A DNA stretch of 64,000 bases from a virus: IMG/VR virus record IMGVR_UViG_3300042691_037870, positions 62,448 to 126,447 of that record; one strand, given 5' to 3'. A model generated the notes under the pieces. The model did not search any database, was not told the DNA's origin, and saw nothing but the letters and a program-made list of their open reading frames with translations. Of the stretch, positions 4,839 to 64,000 are shown piece by piece (within the stretch, counting starts at the first letter, position 1; each line of letters opens with the position of its first letter). The position numbers were made by a program, and so were the translations under genes.

Positions 4839-5201
4839 TTATTTTGCCATGACTCCGATATACTTTGTCCCGTTAATGTATATATCTATGAAGCAAAAAT
4901 CTCTTACTTCTCCAGGTTGGAAATTTACTTCCACCGTTACATCATATTTTCCGGACTCAGGTACATATGCAGCAAGCTGATCATAAAAAGATCTTTGCAA
5001 CTGTGCAGTATTTGCTTGAAATTCAAATAACTGTTCTTCTAAGTTTAAACCCAAACCAGGGAATCCAAGAACTTCACCACGAGTAGTAAATATAATCATA
5101 CGGATTTTAGTTAAAAGTGCTTCTAATTCACTTGAAGTTTCTAACTGGGTAGGTCTGTAACTGGGGTCATTAATATTTCTACAATAAAGTTCCTTTAACA
5201 T
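4839..5201 (-). CDS. Baseplate wedge/sheath initiator (gp25-like)
   Basis: IRMIIFTTRGEVLGFPGLGLNL..LFE matches the gp25/GPW pattern; 120 aa. Confidence 0.8.
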   Translation of the reverse strand: MLKELYCRNINDPSYRPTQLETSSELEALLTKIRMIIFTTRGEVLGFPGLGLNLEEQLFEFQANTAQLQRSFYDQLAAYVPESGKYDVTVEVNFQPGEVRDFCFIDIYINGTKYIGVMAK

Positions 5202-53656: not shown

Positions 53657-54463
53657 TTAATTTACTTCAATATCCACATTGTAGACATCTCCGAGATCTC
53701 CGTATTCTAAACAATCAATATAAGCAACTTTTTCAGTTTCCCATATTGTGCTTTGTGGAGTATGTCCAACGATTTGAAAATAACCATCAATTGCATGATT
53801 ATTTAATATGTGAGGTCTTACCCAAAGCGGGCCTGCCCATCTTTGCCATCCGCCTGAAATACGGTCTACATTATAAATAGAACTTAACTTCATTTCCCAA
53901 CCTAAGTTAAGTTTTTCATCAATCGTTGCTTCTTTATAATGCTGAGCAACATCAAAAAATCTGCCATCAGCTTTGAAAAGTTCTGTTTCAAATTCTTTAT
54001 ACCATTCAGTAGTAACTCCTGCATGCGTCCAAAGATAATTTTCAATTCTATAAGCAAGTTGAAAAAGATTATTGTTCTTTACATACAGTTCATAAAAATC
54101 ATGTTTCATTTCAGCTCTATAACCTGAACATTGTTGATCACTTACTATGTAATGAACATCATGATTACCTAAAAGTAAAACCACTTTATCCGGTAGAACT
54201 GTTTTAAAGAATATGATATCTTCAAGATTCTTTTTCATATCAATATTTTTAATACTAAAAGAATCTACATAATCACCAACAAAAATGATCTTATCGACAT
54301 TTTTAAATCCATAAATTTCAGGATTCCAAGAATCTTCAACAGGACCCCCATTTGCTACAACTCCTTTCCAAGTTTCAAATTCCTCTGGTGAACCGTGTGT
54401 AAAGTACATCCAATCGTTTCTACCGTGAATGTCTCCAATTGACATTGTTTTAATCGTTTTCAT
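53657..54463 (-). CDS. Metallophosphoesterase (Ser/Thr phosphatase-like)
   Basis: GDIHG, GDYVD, GNHD, HAG and GHT motifs. Confidence 0.9.
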   Translation of the reverse strand: MKTIKTMSIGDIHGRNDWMYFTHGSPEEFETWKGVVANGGPVEDSWNPEIYGFKNVDKIIFVGDYVDSFSIKNIDMKKNLEDIIFFKTVLPDKVVLLLGNHDVHYIVSDQQCSGYRAEMKHDFYELYVKNNNLFQLAYRIENYLWTHAGVTTEWYKEFETELFKADGRFFDVAQHYKEATIDEKLNLGWEMKLSSIYNVDRISGGWQRWAGPLWVRPHILNNHAIDGYFQIVGHTPQSTIWETEKVAYIDCLEYGDLGDVYNVDIEVN

Positions 54464-54494
54464 AATTTTCTTATCAAATAGTAGATGTATTTAA

Positions 54495-54589
54495 TTATAT
54501 TACTTAAATACATAAAAGTTTTAATTTGGTAAAACAAAAATAAAACAAAAAACCCAGATTAAAAAATATCTGGGGGTAAAGTTATTAAC
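54495..54589 (-). promoter_or_regulatory. Tandem class II (54495-54520) and class I (54535-54589) promoters
   Basis: AACT-N17-TATAA; GTTAATAAC box plus TATTTTTG with a CCCAGAT/ATCTGGG hairpin. Confidence 0.7.
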
Positions 54590-54610
54590 AAAAACAGTGT
54601 TTTGCGGTAA

Positions 54611-54886
54611 TTACTTTTTAGTTAATACTAATTTGTAGTTAGGGTTTAATTGATAAATTTGATCAAAAACGTCAGTATCAGTATTTGCTTCATTTAATAA
54701 TACTCCTCTTTGCCAAACTTCTTCAGATTTTTTTATGTACTTATCTTCATCTATATTTAGAAAAAGATAACATTGCTCTTTAATTTGCTTAACTGTAAGC
54801 GAGTATTCTGATGTTAGCTTAATAACTTTTTTAAATAAGAGACCTTCTTTTTCTAAGCCAACGGTTGCAGTTATTTGATATTTCAT
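54611..54886 (-). CDS. Hypothetical protein
   Basis: 91 aa. Confidence 0.65.
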   Translation of the reverse strand: MKYQITATVGLEKEGLLFKKVIKLTSEYSLTVKQIKEQCYLFLNIDEDKYIKKSEEVWQRGVLLNEANTDTDVFDQIYQLNPNYKLVLTKK

Positions 54887-54910
54887 ATTTTCATTTTATA
54901 TTTTAATGTA

Positions 54911-57517
54911 TTAGTCCCACCAGACCCATTCATTAATATTATAATCCCAACCATCTTTATTAACTGTCTTTGTAATATAAGTAGTGGGTGTGATTGCGTA
55001 TGTAATTAAATCAGAATTAGATTCTATGCCTAATACAACATAAACTCTATCACCAGAAACTCTCAAGCTATATAAATAGTCAAAGTCGGTTGTAATAGTT
55101 TGAATTAAGCTTCCTTCAATATCATATACATCTATTACATACTTATTATCGTTTTCTGCATCCGGCCAGGCATTATAAAGATGTGTTTTATTTAAGTCAT
55201 ACTCACCCAAGAACCCATTAAGTTGAACTTCTGCAGGAGGTGTCACATCTGAGGATAATATATATGCTTCATCTTGACTTATTATAATAAGAGTATTTCC
55301 ATCTCTATGATAGTCAATATAATTAGTGTTAAAATTTCGATATATATCAATAAAATCAGCAGTTCCGAGCTGAGTGATTGTGTTTCCTAACGATCCTTGT
55401 GCTGAATTCCACCAATATGTTAAATTCTGACTGTAATCAGCCATATAAAAGGTATCATAATTAGTACCCCAAAAATTATTTGTAGTAGTCCAAATCCAAT
55501 CATCATCTATAAACCCCTCTTGTTGAATATCCCAAATTCCCCAGAATTGTGTGTTGGGTGCTTGACTATCATCATTATGCGTTAGTAGAACATATTCATC
55601 TCCAAGTGCAACAGTATTAAAATAAGGACCTGTACTTTCATAATTCGTTACTGTCTCTATTAAATCAATACTACCGTTTTGTTTTAACTTAAGCAATTGT
55701 AATTTAGTAGAATCTGGAAAATTCACATAAAGTAAAAATGGTACAGCAAGTCCATCATCATTTGTAGATAACCCAAATGTTGTAACTTCTTTAATATCTA
55801 TTGTGATATTATCAATAGGAGCAGAACCACCAATCATATCTCCCATGATTATTACCTGATCATCAGGGCTGTATCCGTTACCCATTGTATTTACTGCAAT
55901 TGTGGAAATATTTCGATTAGAATCAGTAACCACATCAAATGTTACCGTATCTCCTGCAAAACCGGTAGGGTTTATTACAGCAACATTTGTGTAAGTCTGA
56001 TTTTCTCCGTATGGCCCAGGATTTGCTGGCAGAGGTAAGATAGGATCAATCTGAAGAACTCCACCAGTTTCAGGTTCATATGAATATAGTTCACCTGTAA
56101 CTGCATTAGACCAAATTATTTTTAGAGGAAAATATCTAGTCATTCTCCCGTCAGACATACTATCTTTATAAATACACACTGCAAAAGATTCATCGCCAAA
56201 TGGTGATGGCGACCAAGAAGAAAAACTTTTAAGCGAATTAGATTGAATTTCTTGATAACTACCGTAGACTTTATTATAATCAAAAGATATAAACCAGCAG
56301 CCAAGATCATCAGGATTAATACTTATAATTGTGTCATCTAAACCGTTAGCATCCGCATGTAGCCATATAATTAATTTATTTGTACCGATTAACCATTCTT
56401 GCTGGACAGTATTAGCATTATATACTGAAATATCAATGTCAGTATATGTGCCATCAGTTTGAATTATTCTTAAGGTTTCTACGCGTTCTCCTTGGAATAC
56501 AACTTCTTGCTCTTCGGAGCTACCCTGGACGTTTTCATTTATAGTAATAGTTGTGCCATCAATATCAATTACATAGGGAGTTAAGCCTGTAAAAGTACTA
56601 ATATCTGGGATTGCATATCCTATTTTAATTTCTGGATTAGGCTCGAGTAATGTTATAAAATTATCACCCTCGTTATAAGATACAGTACTTTCTGTACTAC
56701 TTTCTTCTCCTATTACAATATACATAAAATTACCTACACTTTTCAGCCCATTACCGTAATCAGGACCGAGAATATCCGTAATCTCTGTTATAACTCCTGT
56801 ATGTGCATTAACTAAGTAAGTTCTTGTTTTTTCAAGAACAGTATCGTAATAGTAAATAGAAAATGTTCCATCTATTGTACAGCTATCCCAACTAAACCAA
56901 TCATAGTATACATACTCATCACTAACGTTATTAAAAGTTTCTGTGTAAATCGTATCTCCTCCCCACCATTTAAGGGTTACTAACCCGGATATTGGGTCTG
57001 TGTATGATAATAAAGAAGCAAATCCATCTAAAGAACCATTGTTACGTGATGAATTACCAATATTAACAGTTTCTATAAGATTTCCACCTGCATCTATGAA
57101 GTAAAAAATTCTGTTATTTGAAGAATCAACTTTTTCAAAGATCCAGCCTCGGCCTTCAACCAGTCCTGTAAATTCCAAGTCATTTACAGATGTATAATCA
57201 GGGTCAAGTTCAATCTCTTCGCTAAAAGTTAAATTGTCATAATTAACTATAAAGAATTTAAGAGCACCTGATGAAAGATCTTCATAATAAACAGCTACGT
57301 GTTTTGCACTAATAACTTGTGCTTGCGGATTAACATTAGCAGAACCTCCCCCTCCAGCACCTCCGCTAGAAGATTGTGATTGTGATTGTGATTTCATAGC
57401 AGCCTCCCATAGCGCTTGCATTTCTTCTTCTTCTTGAAGCAATCTCCACTTGCGTTCAAGTTCAGATTGGTTAATACTTAAGTTTCTATGTCTATCAAAG
57501 AATTGATCTTTTCTCAT
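54911..57517 (-). CDS. Large acidic beta-rich putative virion (fibre/decoration) protein
   Basis: Short helical N-terminus, Gly linker, beta-rich body; GATATATA at 57534-57541. Confidence 0.55.
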   Translation of the reverse strand: MRKDQFFDRHRNLSINQSELERKWRLLQEEEEMQALWEAAMKSQSQSQSSSGGAGGGGSANVNPQAQVISAKHVAVYYEDLSSGALKFFIVNYDNLTFSEEIELDPDYTSVNDLEFTGLVEGRGWIFEKVDSSNNRIFYFIDAGGNLIETVNIGNSSRNNGSLDGFASLLSYTDPISGLVTLKWWGGDTIYTETFNNVSDEYVYYDWFSWDSCTIDGTFSIYYYDTVLEKTRTYLVNAHTGVITEITDILGPDYGNGLKSVGNFMYIVIGEESSTESTVSYNEGDNFITLLEPNPEIKIGYAIPDISTFTGLTPYVIDIDGTTITINENVQGSSEEQEVVFQGERVETLRIIQTDGTYTDIDISVYNANTVQQEWLIGTNKLIIWLHADANGLDDTIISINPDDLGCWFISFDYNKVYGSYQEIQSNSLKSFSSWSPSPFGDESFAVCIYKDSMSDGRMTRYFPLKIIWSNAVTGELYSYEPETGGVLQIDPILPLPANPGPYGENQTYTNVAVINPTGFAGDTVTFDVVTDSNRNISTIAVNTMGNGYSPDDQVIIMGDMIGGSAPIDNITIDIKEVTTFGLSTNDDGLAVPFLLYVNFPDSTKLQLLKLKQNGSIDLIETVTNYESTGPYFNTVALGDEYVLLTHNDDSQAPNTQFWGIWDIQQEGFIDDDWIWTTTNNFWGTNYDTFYMADYSQNLTYWWNSAQGSLGNTITQLGTADFIDIYRNFNTNYIDYHRDGNTLIIISQDEAYILSSDVTPPAEVQLNGFLGEYDLNKTHLYNAWPDAENDNKYVIDVYDIEGSLIQTITTDFDYLYSLRVSGDRVYVVLGIESNSDLITYAITPTTYITKTVNKDGWDYNINEWVWWD

Positions 57518-57557
57518 TAGATTTATTTTTTTCTATATATCTTTAACAGTATTACAT

Positions 57558-57583
57558 AAAAAGAGGTCCCAATTGGGACCTCT
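57558..57583 (-). terminator. Intrinsic terminator directly after the tRNA-like RNA
   Basis: Perfect palindrome AGAGGTCCC-AATT-GGGACCTCT plus U-tract. Confidence 0.85.
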
Positions 57584-57584
57584 A

Positions 57585-57702
57585 AGAGGGCGGCCGGACT
57601 TGCATCGGCGGCACGGCTATTTTCCTTCTAAGTACTTTTCTCGAGAACTTTTTCCTATCAATGAAGTACTGGAGCTTGCTCTACTACCTGAGCTACACCC
57701 TC
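57585..57702 (-). ncRNA. tRNA-like RNA (118 nt) with expanded anticodon arm
   Basis: Acceptor GAGGGTG/CGCCCTC, TA linker, D-arm GCTC-AGGTAGTA-GAGC, T-arm GCCGA-TGCAAGT-CCGGC; about 50 nt structured insert in place of the anticodon loop; no encoded CCA. Confidence 0.8.
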
Positions 57703-57876
57703 TTATAATTTAGATCTTAAAATATCAATTTCTTTTTCAAGACGTTTCTTATCACTGTCTGTAAGTGGTATTTTTACATCATGAGTTTTCTTTTGTGTTT
57801 TAACTCCACTTTTGAGTTGGTTCTCAAACATTTCTAATGCTCTTACTTGTCTTGAGCGTTTTTGTGCTGTTGCCAT
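57703..57876 (-). CDS. Small basic protein (57 aa)
   Basis: Below the track cutoff: MATAQKRSRQVRALEMFENQLKSG...EIDILRSKL; its TAA directly precedes nt 1 of the tRNA-like RNA. Confidence 0.7.
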   Translation of the reverse strand: MATAQKRSRQVRALEMFENQLKSGVKTQKKTHDVKIPLTDSDKKRLEKEIDILRSKL

Positions 57877-57895
57877 ATTATTAGTTATTCAGTGA

Positions 57896-57921
57896 TTATA
57901 TTCATGAGACAGGTAATAGTT
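57896..57921 (-). promoter_or_regulatory. Class II promoter for the 57-aa ORF and tRNA-like RNA
   Basis: GAACTAT...AATATAA with a 17-nt spacer. Confidence 0.65.
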
Positions 57922-57960
57922 CTCTAATTGTTAAAAAGTGGGGAGCCTACCCAGTTTTAT

Positions 57961-58683
57961 TTAGATTTTAGTTCCGCAACTTGGACAAAATTTCCAAGTT
58001 GCCTTTTTAGCGCGAGTTCCGCAGTTTGTACAATAATTACGGATCTCGCTTACTTCAACAGGTTTAGCTGAAACAGGAAGAATCTTTAACTTACGAGTCT
58101 CAAATGCCCATGAATTAAATTGATCATTAGAAAAACTTAATGACTGTCCTGTTTCTTTTCCACCCTCTATCATCCCTGTTTCAATTGACTCACAAGCATT
58201 TGTTGAAAAAGAAACTTGTGAAGAGTCAGCAATATGAGAAGATATCGTTGAGGAATAAAAATTGGTAGTTGGCGAATTAAAGTAAGTGTATGTTTGACCG
58301 TTCCACCAATTTCCACCTGTATTAGATAATGTGTTAAACATTTGTTGTGAGTAGTATTCTACTTCAACATCACCATTTAATGCAATAGCTGCTTTAGATT
58401 CAGCAGTGTTGTCAACATCGTATGTGGAAAAGATAAAGCTTTCATCTTTATCAAGAAATCTTTCTAAAAATACTCGTTGACCTGGATTAAGAATTAATCC
58501 GCTAGAAGAAATGTAATAGCCATTAAGTTTAATTTTGGCTAACACTTTGTAAGTGTGAGGATTGTGTAATTCAATTTCGAACTTTTGTCCGTCTTTTAAA
58601 TACACAATTGAACCGTATGTTTTTACGCGATTACGGTTAGTTGTGATGTTTAAATCACAAGTCTTTGAAGTTATAATATTCAT
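57961..58683 (-). CDS. Hypothetical protein with Ig-like N-terminus and C-terminal zinc ribbon
   Basis: CTNCG...CPSCG zinc ribbon. Confidence 0.75.
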   Translation of the reverse strand: MNIITSKTCDLNITTNRNRVKTYGSIVYLKDGQKFEIELHNPHTYKVLAKIKLNGYYISSSGLILNPGQRVFLERFLDKDESFIFSTYDVDNTAESKAAIALNGDVEVEYYSQQMFNTLSNTGGNWWNGQTYTYFNSPTTNFYSSTISSHIADSSQVSFSTNACESIETGMIEGGKETGQSLSFSNDQFNSWAFETRKLKILPVSAKPVEVSEIRNYCTNCGTRAKKATWKFCPSCGTKI

Positions 58684-58691
58684 AATGTCTG

Positions 58692-58786
58692 TCTGGTTGT
58701 TTTTTGTTTATACTTACTTCTTCATATCCGTTTAAGATATTCCAGGGCTATTACACCCGAAGCAAGCCTAAGTTTGGCTCCCCAGA
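58692..58786 (-). promoter_or_regulatory. Candidate structured 5' leader RNA
   Basis: Nested helices TCTGG/CCAGA, GAGCC/GGCTT, CTTC/GAAG, GGGT/GCCC and TATC/GATA in a GC-enriched UTR. Confidence 0.5.
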
Positions 58787-58813
58787 TTTGTTTATATATT
58801 CATCAAATAATAT

Positions 58814-59299
58814 TTAGTTCTTAACAAGAAGCATACTAAATGTTTTTCTTCCTTGCTCATTTGTCTGTATAGAACATCCTACAAGATTTGCATCTGATCT
58901 AATTACCATATAATGACTAGGGCTGTTAATTAAAGCATTAAGCATACTTTGCGGAGTGTAATAGTTGTATCCTACGCATTCACCTACTCTTGAAGCATTA
59001 AGAATGCATTGTATGTTATCAAATCTATCCTGAAACCCTGAATGATTATATGTATTATTTTCTATCATCCATCTTGTATGACGAAAGCATACACTACCAA
59101 TGTGATTATTTGGTATTACATGTGATAAATTATTTTGTATTCGATACGTATTCAATAACATCATTAATTCATACTCTTCTGCAGAATAAGGATGATATAG
59201 TAGGTTATATGTAGAACAATCAGGTTCTGTTCTTTCGGGTTCACTACAAGATAAAAAAAGACTAATCATAACAAAAAATGTATAGATTAGTCTTTTCAT
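58814..59299 (-). CDS. CAP (SCP-like) domain lipoprotein
   Basis: LFLSC lipobox; N.YR, H...M, H, GE and SPSH motifs. Confidence 0.8.
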   Translation of the reverse strand: MKRLIYTFFVMISLFLSCSEPERTEPDCSTYNLLYHPYSAEEYELMMLLNTYRIQNNLSHVIPNNHIGSVCFRHTRWMIENNTYNHSGFQDRFDNIQCILNASRVGECVGYNYYTPQSMLNALINSPSHYMVIRSDANLVGCSIQTNEQGRKTFSMLLVKN

Positions 59300-59326
59300 T
59301 ATTTAAAGGATTTTGTTTATATATTT

Positions 59327-59533
59327 CTAAACATCTTCCCAATTTGCTTCTTGAACAGTTTCACAAAAAACAAAGATTCCATCTTTCTTGAGAACTTTAT
59401 CAGCACCTAAGAAATCTTTCCAGGCATTAAATAACTCTCCTTTAAGAGAGCCATCACGATTACTTAAGGTGCTGACTTTTATCTCACGGAGAATAACATA
59501 AAACTCTCCTCCGTATTGAAAAAGCTGTTTCAT
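59327..59533 (-). CDS. Small hypothetical protein coupled to rsr
   Basis: 68 aa; ATG overlaps the rsr stop. Confidence 0.7.
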   Translation of the reverse strand: MKQLFQYGGEFYVILREIKVSTLSNRDGSLKGELFNAWKDFLGADKVLKKDGIFVFCETVQEANWEDV

Positions 59534-61161
59534 TATTGCTTGTTAGGTTTTTCAACTTCATTCCAAACATCAATGATTGCTTTTGCAAACACCGGTTCTT
59601 TTCCGGTCCAGCCTGTTAACATTGCACCACGGTACAAGTTTTCTGGTAGAACTGTGTTATTGTATCCTGCAACTTGTACAGAGAACACGTTAACTTTAGG
59701 GTTAACTTTTTTACGGTATTCTTCAACAAGTTTGTAAACATCAATGTAAGAACCTCCACCTCCAAAGATATAATCTTGGTAATCACGAGAGTTAGTACCG
59801 TAAAGGCCACCGTGACCCGCTTGTTGGTCAGAATAAATGAATACTGTATCCCAGTGTTCTTTATTCTTAATTGCTTTATCCCAGAATAACCAAATACCAT
59901 TTTCTGTTCCACCACCAATTCCATTACCTTCAGTATTTGATTCTTTTAGTTGAGTTAACAACCCGTTTCTTTTGGAAACCGCACGCGTTTTAAGTCTATC
60001 ACCAAATACACCTACATAACCTTCTTCAGAGCTCAAACCAGTGATAAGAGCTGATAAGTTAGCAATTTCAGCAACAGTTACTGAACCATATTCAGAGTTA
60101 AATGCACCCCAAGCAGAACCTGAGTTATCACAAAGACTCATAACTTTACCTTCAAGTTTTGGCATATTTGCAACCGCAATATCCATACATTCTTCAAGAG
60201 CATCAAGAATCATTTGTGAGTGGTTAACACTTGCGCTTTTTACAGCTTTAAATGCAGACCAATAACGGAATGGAAATTGTTTTCCACCAGGTACACCTGC
60301 TTTAAGTTGCTCAAGAACTTTTGCAGCTACTGCTTTATCGTCAATCTCTGTAAAGATACCACGAAGATTTCTTAAAAGAGCCATGTGTGGGATACGAATT
60401 GTTTCAAGGATTTCAGCCCAAGACTTTCCTTGAGATCTTAAAGATTCCCAAGTTTGCTCAGAATCGTTTACCACAAGAGTACCTGTTTTCATTAACTCGT
60501 TAATATCTTCATTACTTGCGTGTGAAATACGAACTAAGTCAATAAGACTTTTGCCTTTATATTTGTTTAACTGATATCTTGAGAAAGATTCAAGAGTTTC
60601 TGCCCAAGTTCTTTTAAGGATTGATGGCAAACCTTTTTTAGAACCTTTTAAGAATGCGTAATAATCAAATTGATTTGTTACATCATCAGGACGGTTTGCA
60701 ATCGCTTTACCAATAGCCTTCATATAACCAGGATTAGCTTCGTTAAAAGCAATACGGTTTGGGTGTTGAGAAGCTCTAACATAGATCACGGCTGGGTTTA
60801 ATCTCATAAAGTATTCTTTACGTAATTCAACAGCAAGATCTAATGTAGCTTTAAAATCATACTCAAGAGCAGAATCAATTGCAGCAGTAAATACATCAGC
60901 CGCTGATCTTTTATCTTTTATAAGATCTTTAAAGATACTGTAAGTTAATAAGTCAGAGTGGTTACGAATACTTGCTGGAGATTCAATACCATCACGGTAA
61001 TACTGAGGCTCACCGAAGATAGAACTTGCAGCAATCATTTTTAAAGTTGCAAGAGGTGAAAGTGTAAAACTTGTACCACCCATAAAGTTTTCAACAGATG
61101 TTGAATAAACTTCGTTTCTTGTTGTAGTTTCTTTTGTTGCGTACTTTGATAATCTACTCAT
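59533..61161 (-). CDS. rsr: Ro60/Rsr (TROVE + vWA) RNA-binding protein
   Basis: FGEPQYY, RPDD, YQLNKY, MALLRNLR and PFRY TROVE motifs; DNSGS MIDAS, GGT and SD.Q vWA motifs. Confidence 0.93.
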   Translation of the reverse strand: MSRLSKYATKETTTRNEVYSTSVENFMGGTSFTLSPLATLKMIAASSIFGEPQYYRDGIESPASIRNHSDLLTYSIFKDLIKDKRSAADVFTAAIDSALEYDFKATLDLAVELRKEYFMRLNPAVIYVRASQHPNRIAFNEANPGYMKAIGKAIANRPDDVTNQFDYYAFLKGSKKGLPSILKRTWAETLESFSRYQLNKYKGKSLIDLVRISHASNEDINELMKTGTLVVNDSEQTWESLRSQGKSWAEILETIRIPHMALLRNLRGIFTEIDDKAVAAKVLEQLKAGVPGGKQFPFRYWSAFKAVKSASVNHSQMILDALEECMDIAVANMPKLEGKVMSLCDNSGSAWGAFNSEYGSVTVAEIANLSALITGLSSEEGYVGVFGDRLKTRAVSKRNGLLTQLKESNTEGNGIGGGTENGIWLFWDKAIKNKEHWDTVFIYSDQQAGHGGLYGTNSRDYQDYIFGGGGSYIDVYKLVEEYRKKVNPKVNVFSVQVAGYNNTVLPENLYRGAMLTGWTGKEPVFAKAIIDVWNEVEKPNKQ

Positions 61162-61199
61162 GTTAATAGTTTTTGTGTGTTATATTTTTATTTGTATTG

Positions 61200-61254
61200 C
61201 AAATTTATTAATCTTTTATCACAGTAGCAAATTTTGTTAACGTGTGTTATTAAC
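61200..61254 (-). promoter_or_regulatory. Class I promoter of rsr (consensus Bacteroidota -33/-7)
   Basis: TTTG-N20-TAAATTTG plus GTTAATAAC box at the fixed gap. Confidence 0.85.
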
Positions 61255-61286
61255 AAAAAATGCTTCGCGAAATTAATCACGAAGCA
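61255..61286 (-). terminator. Terminator ending the Y-RNA array
   Basis: TGCTTCG/CGAAGCA stem plus U6. Confidence 0.8.
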
Positions 61287-61322
61287 GTCATATATAGACA
61301 GCATATTAATGCTGGTATGTTT

Positions 61323-61405
61323 AATATGACCGAGAATATTGAAAAGGTGTGTTGTTTGAATTTTCCTTAAAATTGATGTAACACCCAATCCCGCTTCGGA
61401 ATATT
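61323..61405 (-). ncRNA. Y-RNA-like ncRNA B (short, about 83 nt)
   Basis: Terminal stem AATATTCCGAAG...TTCTCGGTCATATT, inner GGTGT/ACACC helix, GTTACATCA motif; next to rsr. Confidence 0.75.
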
Positions 61406-61414
61406 TTATAAGTT

Positions 61415-61658
61415 TTGTCGTACCTGAGAATTTCTCATTAGAGGATTGCAAATTACGTTTGCGATTCGACCCTGTTATTAAGCGGGTAGCCGATCTACTA
61501 AAATCTATCAAAGATAGCCCGTCCTGTTTGTAGAAGTAAAAGACGGTAAGATTCTTTAAATGTTTAAGGTTTTACGCTTAACGTCATATTAAAGAAATTG
61601 GCTGCTCTAATTATCAATGTATTTGAAGTAACCCTAACAACCGCTTCAAGCGTGACAA
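61415..61658 (-). ncRNA. Y-RNA-like ncRNA A (long, about 244 nt)
   Basis: TTGTCACGCTTGAAGCGG...TTCTCAGGTACGACAA terminal stem, GGTTACTTCA motif, multi-hairpin interior. Confidence 0.75.
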
Positions 61659-61676
61659 TGTATTGTAAGAACGTAA

Positions 61677-61739
61677 AAACGAAATCCAACTTTATTCTTC
61701 CATTTTTGGATGTAATCAAGTTATACAACTATTTCGTTT
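61677..61739 (-). ncRNA. Possible third, divergent Y-like unit C
   Basis: 9-bp AAACGAAAT/ATTTCGTTT stem, AACTT/AAGTT helix, GATTACATC motif, TCCA/TGGA hairpin. Confidence 0.45.
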
Positions 61740-61776
61740 ATGCTGGTTGTGCAGCTGTTTAAATTAAATTCGGATT

Positions 61777-61802
61777 ATATATACATGCTTAAACTTATAG
61801 TT
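61777..61802 (-). promoter_or_regulatory. Class II-like promoter upstream of the Y-RNA array
   Basis: AACT-N17-TATAT; also resembles the late octamer. Confidence 0.5.
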
Positions 61803-61850
61803 TTTGCATTTTTGCACTTTTTTAAGACTTTTTTCATATTGTTAATAAAG

Positions 61851-63020
61851 TTATTGCTTAAATCCTGTTCTGTAGATGTAAAAATTTGTAGATCCATTAT
61901 TTGCTGGTGAACTAATTGTGAGTAATGAAGTCCCAGGAATAGTATTTCGGAGATCAGTTGTACTTGATAATATTGTTGAATGTTGGGCAGGAGTCATAAT
62001 TCTGTAGTTAGGTGTATATGGCCAAGCAGCGAATCTACCGTTCATTTTTGAATATGTAGTAAAAATATCTGAAACGGATACTTGAGTGTTTTGGTTTACG
62101 TCAAATAAGTAATATGTTTTTGATGAAAATGGATTTTGATTAAGAATAAAAGAAGTCATTGATGATATATCAGACTGTGTAGGGTTTCCTACTGATAAAT
62201 CTCCAATTCTTAATTCAAATTGAAAAGACTGAACATCTAATCCAGAATTTATAACATATCTTCCTGTTGTATCTGTTATATGTGTTGATTTTAACGAAAA
62301 AGAGGTTTCAGCGGATGCTGGTATAAATCTTACTGAATAGTTAGTAACAGACCATAAAGAAGCATTTTTCCCACCTACCGGTACTACGTTTGTATTATCA
62401 ATGTTTACCAAACCTGCTGTTGCATTATTTACTCCACATAATGGTTTGGCTGCATAGTTAATATCAATAATGTTGGTAGTTTCATTAAGTATTATTTGAA
62501 ATGTAAATAAAGTAGTTCTACATCCATAATGAGGTACTGCATTAAAAGAAACAATCAGCTGTCTATTAGGTGCTAAACCTGTTGTTCTATAATAAATGTT
62601 TGCTGCGCCTGGAAATAAGTCTTCCCAATCTGCCATAATTACATTTCTTGGTGAACCCGCATTTGGTATAAATTGTGCAGTGTAACCTGTTGTTTGTCCA
62701 GGAGAAAATCCAATCCAACCATTGGATCCTATATAAAATTGTGTATAGTTATTACCAAAAAAATTAAATGTAAAACCAATGTTAAACGGGCCGTGTGTAA
62801 CATCATCAGAAGAAGGCACAACCGTTCCTGTGTTAAACGATAATCCGCTTGGATATGTAGGAAATGTTATTGCATACGGATCTGTTCTTCTACCAAAAAG
62901 ATTAACGGGTATGTTAGCTATGCCAGTCCCATTTGAATCATAAACAAACCCTGAATGTTTAAACTCTTGTGAGTATAAACATGTGGATAACAGCAAAAAG
63001 ATAAGTATAATTTTTTTCAT
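61851..63020 (-). CDS. Secreted protein with nidogen-like and dockerin-like segments
   Basis: Signal peptide ending in YSQ; DD....IGFTFNFFG..Y...YIGSNGWI.F; DVNQNTQVSVSD Ca-loop. Confidence 0.7.
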   Translation of the reverse strand: MKKIILIFLLLSTCLYSQEFKHSGFVYDSNGTGIANIPVNLFGRRTDPYAITFPTYPSGLSFNTGTVVPSSDDVTHGPFNIGFTFNFFGNNYTQFYIGSNGWIGFSPGQTTGYTAQFIPNAGSPRNVIMADWEDLFPGAANIYYRTTGLAPNRQLIVSFNAVPHYGCRTTLFTFQIILNETTNIIDINYAAKPLCGVNNATAGLVNIDNTNVVPVGGKNASLWSVTNYSVRFIPASAETSFSLKSTHITDTTGRYVINSGLDVQSFQFELRIGDLSVGNPTQSDISSMTSFILNQNPFSSKTYYLFDVNQNTQVSVSDIFTTYSKMNGRFAAWPYTPNYRIMTPAQHSTILSSTTDLRNTIPGTSLLTISSPANNGSTNFYIYRTGFKQ

Positions 63021-63463
63021 TACATTTTAGATACTGCATTTTCAATAGACATCTTTAAAGCACCCGCAAATGATGTCTTATTAAACGGTAGATTTTCATC
63101 GTTAAGATCAATGAATGTAGCACTTACTGAAGTTTTGGTAGTACCTTCTCCAATAAATTCTTCACCGTCTTTAGTTATTTTAACCGTTACTGCTGTTTCT
63201 TTACTCTTTTTCATAAAAGGACCGATTGAAACTCCAACAGATGGTGCCTCAACACTTACAACTTCAACAGTAACAGGTCGCCCATCATTACAAATATCAT
63301 ATTCTTCTGATAGCACTTCTTCAGTAATTTGCTTAATTCCAAATAAAACTCTTTCGGTTTTCATTTCAGGAACATCAACACTGGACTTAACCTCAGTTAC
63401 TTTATAACAAGGTTTAAATGAGGTTAACATAAAAAATGCAATTACTATGATTATCTTTTTCAT
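63020..63463 (-). CDS. Secreted hypothetical protein
   Basis: MKKIIIVIAFFML signal peptide. Confidence 0.7.
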   Translation of the reverse strand: MKKIIIVIAFFMLTSFKPCYKVTEVKSSVDVPEMKTERVLFGIKQITEEVLSEEYDICNDGRPVTVEVVSVEAPSVGVSIGPFMKKSKETAVTVKITKDGEEFIGEGTTKTSVSATFIDLNDENLPFNKTSFAGALKMSIENAVSKM

Positions 63464-63464
63464 A

Positions 63465-64000
63465 TTAAAAAATTATTTTCCCACCTGTCATTACTTGATA
63501 GTTTAACATATTTTTGTTCATTTCATAAACTCCTGAAAAACTAACATTTAATTTAAAGGTTTTTGTAATTGAATAATCCCAAGTACTATAAGGTACAAGA
63601 AGAGTACTACTATCCCACCAACGACCATCAAAAAATTGCGTAAATGGTGAATAGACAGCAATCATTAATGTTGAGCCTGATAGTTTCTTAGTTATTTTGT
63701 ATGAATAAAATCCACCACCCATTAATGAAGCATTCGCAAATCGTGTTTCTCCGTAATTGCCAGCTGTTAAGTTTAAACCTAACATAGTGGTAAGTTTTTT
63801 CCAATTACCTCTATATCTTTTAGATAGTACAAATGTAGATGTATTAAAAAAATCTTTTTCAAAATTCATCATTGAAGAATTTGCTGCAATCGCAGTTAAC
63901 TTGCTTTTCTTAAACACCCAAGCTTTATAGAACGTAACGTTTGTATTATTTATTCCTGTAGTATAGTTTGCAAGAACACCTTTGATTCTAGTATTATTTG
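63465..64000 (-). CDS. Outer-membrane beta-barrel-like protein, start lies beyond the window
   Basis: Frame is open to the window end; alternating beta-strand pattern; C-terminal Phe. Confidence 0.6.
   Translation of the reverse strand, partial: NNTRIKGVLANYTTGINNTNVTFYKAWVFKKSKLTAIAANSSMMNFEKDFFNTSTFVLSKRYRGNWKKLTTMLGLNLTAGNYGETRFANASLMGGGFYSYKITKKLSGSTLMIAVYSPFTQFFDGRWWDSSTLLVPYSTWDYSITKTFKLNVSFSGVYEMNKNMLNYQVMTGGKIIF

Follow-up and report, generated by a model that had tools for sequence, protein, structure and literature searches.

Which module does a phage Y RNA carry when no tRNA-like domain can be found in it? The question is raised by a 64,000-nucleotide (nt) stretch of virus DNA (positions 62,448 to 126,447 of IMG/VR record IMGVR_UViG_3300042691_037870; hereafter the window), in which a Y-like RNA, RNA A, lies upstream of rsr, a gene of the Ro60 type. 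The background is taken from excerpts of the papers cited. In each of three characterised bacteria, one Y RNA is tRNA-like and the other is a simple hairpin (Chen et al. 2014, PMC4201824), and a Y RNA tethers the protein Rsr to PNPase (PMC4201824). The Ro60 and Yrl RNAs of Thermus phage phiLo and the host PNPase form ternary complexes in vitro (PMC12135203). In the part of a jumbo-phage review used here, the sole mention is of a TROVE protein that has a 'tRNA-like partner', and a Listeria phage study, as excerpted, raises Y RNAs as a possible identity for abundant RNAs found close to an Rsr-like gene. We conclude, with a probability of about 0.8, that RNA A is a true Y RNA, expressed by the phage, with a terminal clamp that is most likely held by Rsr, and that a new module of ~190 nt inside the clamp replaces the tRNA mimic and most likely docks a second factor.

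The virus record as a whole (G000) has 126,447 bases and a CheckV completeness of 49%; the window makes up its second half. A TROVE domain and 54% identity to Bacillus phage G gp540 identify the open reading frame (ORF) at 59533-61161 as the phage Ro60-type gene rsr. The non-coding stretch of 689 bases upstream of rsr (61162-61850) contains RNA A, whose 3' end is 254 nt from rsr on the same strand. The 244-nt RNA A (61658-61415) folds with a predicted energy of -55.7 kcal/mol (z = -2.38), and 3 of 200 shuffled sequences folded equally well; a longer stretch of 321 nt that included the flanks gave a z of only -0.59. The original prediction, made from the letters of the window, had placed a set of helices on the minus strand at 61415-61658, and all of their strings were found there. 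The elements of RNA A are ordered P0, P1, internal loop, P2, UUACUUC plus linker, H1, H2, H3, UUUUAGUAGAUC, H4, CGAAUC, H5 and P2, with UUUUAGUAGAUC as a single strand between H3 and H4 (Table 1). The five hairpins listed, H1 to H5, are enclosed by the terminal clamp (P0, P1, a conserved internal loop and P2) and recur with different sequences in homologues.

Homologues were collected by a protein-guided scan that gave 46 viral loci and 80 metagenome loci, the latter kept from 169 relatives, with 1200 nt fetched at the metagenome loci. Three kinds of unit were observed: short hairpins of ~83 nt, like the neighbouring RNA B of the window; long units that come first and measure 160-293 nt, RNA A among them; and units with a T arm. 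A profile of the long unit retrieved full-length copies upstream of rsr in related phages, 85 in total, which amount to 59 distinct sequences. Strong A-type matches were present at each of the 29 viral loci where Rsr identity reached 63% and no fewer than 700 nt of upstream sequence were available, compared to none of the 14 loci of lower identity. The same split of Rsr identity gave 44 of 62 versus 0 of 3 metagenome loci. Canonical T-arm units were found in loci whose Rsr is only 51-54% identical.

After the outliers L179, L214, L005, L020, L192 and L174 had been dropped from the 59 distinct sequences, the other 53 were aligned with MAFFT without reference to structure (alignment A1). The proposed partners were paired in 79.2% of 2917 cells, compared to 42.5-51.1% when partners were slid by 1 to 3 columns. 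Both sides had changed in 448 cells, compared to 99-224 in the slid controls. The covariation score was 0.399 against at most 0.185 in the slid controls, and none of 500 shuffles reached 0.399. Neither a match to a known family nor a lack of covariation, the two outcomes named beforehand as counting against the original prediction, was observed.

A second alignment (A2) and the hairpin tallies used the 41 sequences with the layout of the window; twelve more (group 2, L002 and L176) were excluded because their middle part is built differently. Stem lengths of H1-H3 differ between homologues, which lowers their figures on alignments, and these hairpins were therefore folded sequence by sequence. 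H1 had at least 5 base pairs (bp) in 41/41 sequences, with 32 distinct stems. H2 had at least 3 bp in 36/41 and at least 4 bp in 30/41; its stems took 22 distinct forms, while the 13-nt loop that they close is conserved. H3 had at least 3 bp in 41/41 and at least 4 bp in 30/41, with 16 distinct stems. Close relatives of the window have the H4 stems ACCC/GGGU, AUCC/GGAU and ACUC/GAGU. The same hairpins emerged when RNAalifold was run independently on each of eight subgroups. A subgroup of ten loci (L003, L007, L008, L011, L021, L037, L040, L190, L193 and L194) keeps the clamp, H1, an H4-like hairpin with the loop UAGAAA, and H5; its middle part is constructed in another way, and a further hairpin precedes the linker.

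The best-supported element of the interior is a pseudoknot, which was absent from the helices of the original prediction. The H2 loop, with the consensus AGUACUGCUAYAGA (UUACUUCUACAAAC in the window), contains five bases complementary to the conserved strand CAGUAGCUCGG (GUAGC). Alignment A3, with 40 distinct rows, was fitted to the 123-position model R1, which covers H1-H3 only and does not contain the pseudoknot helix. In A3 this helix was 96.9% paired and 4 of its 5 pairs had double-sided changes (for example, GC in 22 rows versus UA in 8, and UA in 32 versus AU in 4 and CG in 3). It was 83.3% paired on the structure-blind alignment. The H2 stem and this helix would together form an H-type pseudoknot; alternatively, the H2 stem and the GUAGC pairing could be mutually exclusive. 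One natural variant, L020, is shorter (174 nt in the extracted form); by eye it appears to retain H2, the pseudoknot pairing, a CGAUUA linker and H5, which are therefore candidates for the core. The UUACUUC of the clamp recurs in the H2 loop of the window and of L163 and L164, two of the three relatives closest to it; the third, L001, has UUACCUC there. Pairing of the GUAG strand with either copy of UUACUUC is conceivable, and the clamp copy is invariant, so that covariation is uninformative on this choice.

By the tests applied, the interior is not tRNA-like, as had been proposed. Rfam gave no match at the gathering score over the 64-kb window, and at E ≤ 10 on 2 kb it gave six chance-level matches, none of them to tRNA, YrlA or Y_RNA. 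The YrlA model (RF02553) had no match at E ≤ 1 across the 126-kb record. The tRNA model (RF00005) had no match across the same record and was positive in 14/14 control genomes, and ARAGORN found no tRNA. As a further positive control, the Rfam tRNA model finds modules inside the equivalent clamp in distant rsr loci. Such tRNA-like cloverleaves, matched by the model and enclosed by the clamp, are located at L028:5003-5086, L029:4850-4903 and 4971-5041, L032:4745-4817 and 4992-5062, L033:1956-2027 and L043:5187-5260, all with an Rsr 51-54% identical. Their clamp reads GAAGCGG...GTTACTTC and ...TTCTC, and their arms follow the normal D-anticodon-T order, unlike the T/AS/D order of YrlA. RNA A shares with these units the clamp motifs, the position of the module inside P2 and the orientation, and differs from them in having no match to the Rfam tRNA model. 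Yrn1 of Deinococcus radiodurans is presumably of the same clamp-enclosed cloverleaf kind, a grouping made by description only.

That the interior is an expanded, degenerate tRNA mimic, keeping the three-dimensional L-shape and the same partners, appears quite unlikely. The module sits where the distant relatives have a model-detected cloverleaf, and many homologues have GGTTCAATTC right after the GUAGC strand. The window also contains GGTCGAATC (61471-61463), which had been read as a T-loop remnant. However, the tRNA and YrlA models are negative even at permissive thresholds, as is ARAGORN, and the D, anticodon and T arms have no counterparts in the five hairpins and the pseudoknot. The GGTCGAATC string before H5 occurs in 1/53 homologues and looks like a chance resemblance; the commonest forms at this position are GAACGATTA (12) and GAATGATTA (10), and instead of UU, the conserved CGA is usually preceded by AA or AT. 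The T/AS/D domain of YrlA, with its GUUCGAAUC-type T-loop and D-arm, was not found in RNA A, where this sole T-loop-like string lies outside a stem. Nor is RNA A a long hairpin of the YrlB / Yrn2 type, as ~190 nt with five hairpins separate its P2 strands. The observation behind the original prediction is confirmed, and its interpretation is partly supported, in that the interior is a conserved multi-helix domain unlike tRNA; such a domain may be a new effector, for which the proposed roles were a protein-recruiting scaffold or a decoy for host defence RNases.

The clamp carries the signature YYGAAGCGG, 7-8 variable bases and GWTACWTC, which was found with a profile of the shared 5' motif. From 1 to 4 copies are present beside rsr in most related loci, almost always on the rsr strand. 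GAAGCGG also adjoins rsr in most loci that have other unit types, and the second clamp motif is common to the short units and the tRNA-like units. The ends of RNA A pair as those of Y RNAs do, in P1 and P2 alike (Table 1); columns 14/304 of helix 1, for example, are UA in 34 sequences and CG in 19. The duplex energy of P2 was -7.65 for own versus -5.48 for cross pairings. In the minimum free energy (MFE) fold the P2 5' strand pairs with the linker that precedes H1, an alternative that was rejected (own versus cross -6.38 versus -6.65; median rank 0.46), and a local GAAG...CUUC hairpin inside the clamp was rejected by eye since its variants are uncompensated. No clamp motif was found at 61659-61727, where a third, degenerate unit had been suspected. 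Because the clamp is common to RNA B and to the tRNA-carrying units of distant phages, it is most likely the site that Rsr would hold. The occurrence of the clamp in three kinds of unit in many phages and its likeness to the CGAAG-type motif, as given in the excerpted PMC4201824, point the same way.

RNA A is also represented in RNA libraries. A word index of 61200-61900 (a 701-nt stretch) was compared with DNA and RNA runs, and 51-100% of the sampled words were present in 10 DNA runs and 23-40% in 7 RNA runs. Four RNA runs from four lake metatranscriptome studies each gave one contig, 100% identical to the window, spanning 61430-61716 (X11), 61417-61701 (X12), 61418-61660 (X16) and 61419-61636. 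Three of the contigs stop at 61417-61419, within 3 bases of each other and inside the 3' strand of P0, and X16 corresponds approximately to the predicted RNA from end to end. RNA B and rsr had no contig in the four runs, which is no evidence that they are silent. The contigs are a weak hint of expression; they fit a stable RNA of ~245 nt, which may be cut from a precursor with its start near 61716. The string TGTATAAC at 61727-61720 is a candidate extended -10 element and could fit a precursor with a leader; a scan for sigma-70 promoters gave a single weak site, located within RNA A.

These contigs bear on whether RNA A, rather than being a partner of Rsr, acts on rsr in cis as a leader or riboswitch, or is a small RNA with no relation to the gene. 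RNA A is upstream of rsr on the same strand, and X11 and X12 reach upstream of its stem, as a leader might. Against this, the RNA contigs end at 61417-61419, short of rsr, and RNA B and a terminator-like hairpin intervene before the gene. The distance from RNA A to rsr varies from 162 to 2009 nt across loci, and in other phages the clamp is also found in units downstream of rsr. We regard a cis role or an unrelated small RNA as very improbable.

RNA A is similar to YrlA (RF02553, PMC4201824, as excerpted) in several respects. It is near a Ro60 gene and on the same strand, its ends form a stem with a conserved 5' motif that in part resembles the CGAAG type, it is the larger, first RNA of a pair with a short hairpin RNA, and its module is inside the stem. 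In contrast to YrlA, the module is not of the T/AS/D kind, has no match to the YrlA model and belongs to an RNA of ~245 nt rather than a model of 114 positions. Its interior is made of five hairpins and a pseudoknot, and the C of its 5' motif, YGAAGCGG, pairs and covaries with U. RNA B fits the long-hairpin type of YrlB / Yrn2, as excerpts of PMC4201824 describe it, and shares the clamp with RNA A, whereas RNA A has ~190 nt between the P2 strands instead of a small loop. The arrangement also resembles Yrl1/Yrl2 of phiLo, where a phage Ro60 has two upstream Y-like RNAs with a CGAA-type motif (PMC12135203, as excerpted). The phiLo Yrl RNAs are described as stem-bulge-stem, the excerpt reports no large structured module in them, and it is by this description that they are set apart from RNA A (PMC12135203). 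Phage Y RNAs themselves are known. What is new here is that the hairpin RNA is kept and the tRNA-like RNA is replaced by a pseudoknotted module.

In the arrangement we propose, Rsr would grip the clamp (P0/P1, GAAGCGG opposite AUUCUC, P2 and UUACUUC), and the ~190-nt module of H1-H5 and the pseudoknot would occupy the place of the tRNA mimic of related phages and bacteria. By analogy, the module would most likely bring a second factor, probably one encoded by the host, to the Rsr particle, and gating of the Rsr ring is a further possible role. We infer Rsr binding, the tethering role and the existence of a partner; for docking, the analogy is to the Y RNA tether between Rsr and PNPase (PMC4201824) and to the ternary complexes of phiLo (PMC12135203), both as excerpted. 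The tethering partner of the Ro60 ring is believed to be set by the module. This clade keeps the clamp and the hairpin RNA and swaps the tRNA mimic for another conserved fold, which suggests that the module is exchangeable, and the swap amounts to a natural test of module function. With its small size, clear limits and 59 natural variants, RNA A, which apparently accumulates in lake RNA libraries, is open to experiment.

The neighbourhood of rsr changes between loci. When the ten window ORFs at 53657-63917 were compared with loci L001-L046, only two recurred, solely in L001: a zinc-ribbon gene (57961-58683) and a 68-aa ORF (59327-59533). This makes rsr the sole constant neighbour, and RNA A, RNA B and rsr move as a cassette. 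We suggest, tentatively and with more doubt than confidence, that RNA A represents a new class of Y-RNA effector in a freshwater clade of large phages, carried in a self-contained rsr cassette and coupling the Ro60 ring to a partner other than a tRNA-recognising or PNPase-type one, such as a host nuclease or a defence protein. A cassette-like, phage-specific module amid changing neighbours, apparently present as a discrete species in four RNA libraries, would also suit a decoy or inhibitor of a host defence nuclease or RNA-binding defence protein, which Rsr would chiefly stabilise. In the view of the phiLo authors, the phage hijacks host PNPase to escape defence (PMC12135203, as excerpted), which is in line with such a role. 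We nevertheless consider a decoy unlikely, as no likeness in sequence or structure to a known nuclease substrate was found; the present data do not separate decoy from tether.

Several points weigh against reading RNA A as an expressed, Rsr-held Y RNA with a new module. Eighteen of the 62 same-clade metagenome loci (L166, L167, L179, L180, L182, L183, L185, L189, L195, L211-L214, L222, L225, L227, L235 and L236) had no strong A-type match within the 1200 nt fetched; the RNA is 1.6-2.4 kb upstream in some viral loci, so in these 18 it may be out of range or replaced. On alignments H1-H3 were only 61-72% paired, and their support comes from the per-sequence folding. The original prediction had enclosed the first hairpins in an AGCC/GGCT helix. 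Its strings are present, but the pairing is unproven: AGCC/GGYU is compatible in ~12/41 sequences (the closest relatives of the window and a second subgroup) with zero double-sided changes, because the 3' strand is a nearly invariant GGTT. It competes with P4, in which GGYU pairs with RAYC beside P2 (81.1% paired, zero double-sided changes) and which is likewise unproven. What seemed in one group to be a GGGU/ACCC swap came down to GGU/ACC when inspected. The assignment of the clamp to Rsr comes from its linkage to rsr. The published Y RNA motif GNCGAAN0-1G (/ GGUCCGA) is matched in part, as the family has YGAAGCGG, with CGAAG in 21/59 and UUGAAG in the window, and its leading G is not seen. 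RNA libraries can contain DNA, and the contigs, which were compared among RNA runs, fix neither strand, ends nor level. A literature search over listings and the openings of abstracts returned no description of such a module, with the supplementary phage YrlA hits of Chen et al. 2014, including phage G, outside its coverage.

Table 1. Features of the rsr locus and of RNA A in the window, with the basis for each.
Feature	Coordinates	Strand	Basis
rsr, Ro60-type gene, 542 aa	59533..61161	minus	Pfam TROVE 2.8e-7; 54% identity to Bacillus phage G gp540
Terminator-like hairpin and U-tract after RNA B	61261..61286	minus	sequence scan
Y-like RNA B, short hairpin unit, same clamp as RNA A	61323..61405	minus	second clamp motif of the record
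Y-like RNA A, 5' to 3' strand of the terminal stem	61415..61658	minus	strings present, MFE fold; RNA-library contig X16 = 61418-61660
Possible 5' leader of a precursor	61659..61716	minus	X11 and X12 extend 40-58 nt 5' of the stem
P0, 5' strand UUGUC, with GACAA 61419-61415	61654..61658	minus	MFE fold; outer helix 1, variable in homologues
P1, 5' strand GCUUGA, with UCAGGU 61427-61422	61646..61651	minus	helix 1: 89.8% paired, 7/10 pairs with double-sided changes
GAAGCGG, invariant clamp motif, likely Rsr contact (inferred)	61641..61647	minus	53/53 sequences
P2, 5' strand UUGUUAGGG, with CUCUAAUGA 61443-61435	61632..61640	minus	86.8% paired, 9/10 pairs with double-sided changes
Single strand UUACUUC, second clamp motif	61625..61631	minus	GTTACTTC or a one-to-two-base variant in 57/59
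H1, long hairpin, TTCTTTAA 61596-61589 / TTAAAGAA 61559-61552, inner UUAAG 61581-61577 / CUUAA 61568-61564	61552..61596	minus	
H2, CCGUCUU 61546-61540 / AGGACGG 61525-61519, loop 61539-61526	61519..61546	minus	
Pseudoknot, 5' strand UCUAC in the H2 loop, with GUAGA 61498-61494	61530..61534	minus	covariation
H3, CUAUC 61517-61513 / GAUAG 61509-61505	61505..61517	minus	
GGCU, candidate 5' strand of P4 (with AAUC 61447-61444) or 3' strand of AGCC/GGCU (AGCC 61603-61600)	61488..61491	minus	both unproven
H4, ACCC 61487-61484 / GGGU 61472-61469	61469..61487	minus	75.3% paired, 5/6 pairs with double-sided changes
Linker CGAAUC, consensus CGAWUM	61463..61468	minus	homologue alignment
H5, GCAAA 61462-61458 / UUUGC 61452-61448, loop CGUAA	61448..61462	minus	93.2% paired, 5/5 pairs with double-sided changes
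3' clamp motif GAAAUUCUC, opposite GAAGCGG in the internal loop	61426..61434	minus	TTCTC invariant

A blastn search of the intergenic region against GenBank phages gave no match, and a pattern scan of viral contigs gave no further full-length A-type RNA. The same kind of scan over genome contigs (15 specified bases, 596 billion bases) returned 120 matches, which is chance level by our own estimate and uninformative on the host. The GC content is 30-36%, and the genes around RNA A are on the minus strand. No tRNA gene was detected in the 126,447-base record, and at several related loci many tRNA genes lie no more than 3 kb from rsr. A ROOL RNA (RF03087, 284 bits; L031:809-1452) adjoins a tRNA array upstream of rsr in a single contig of a related phage.
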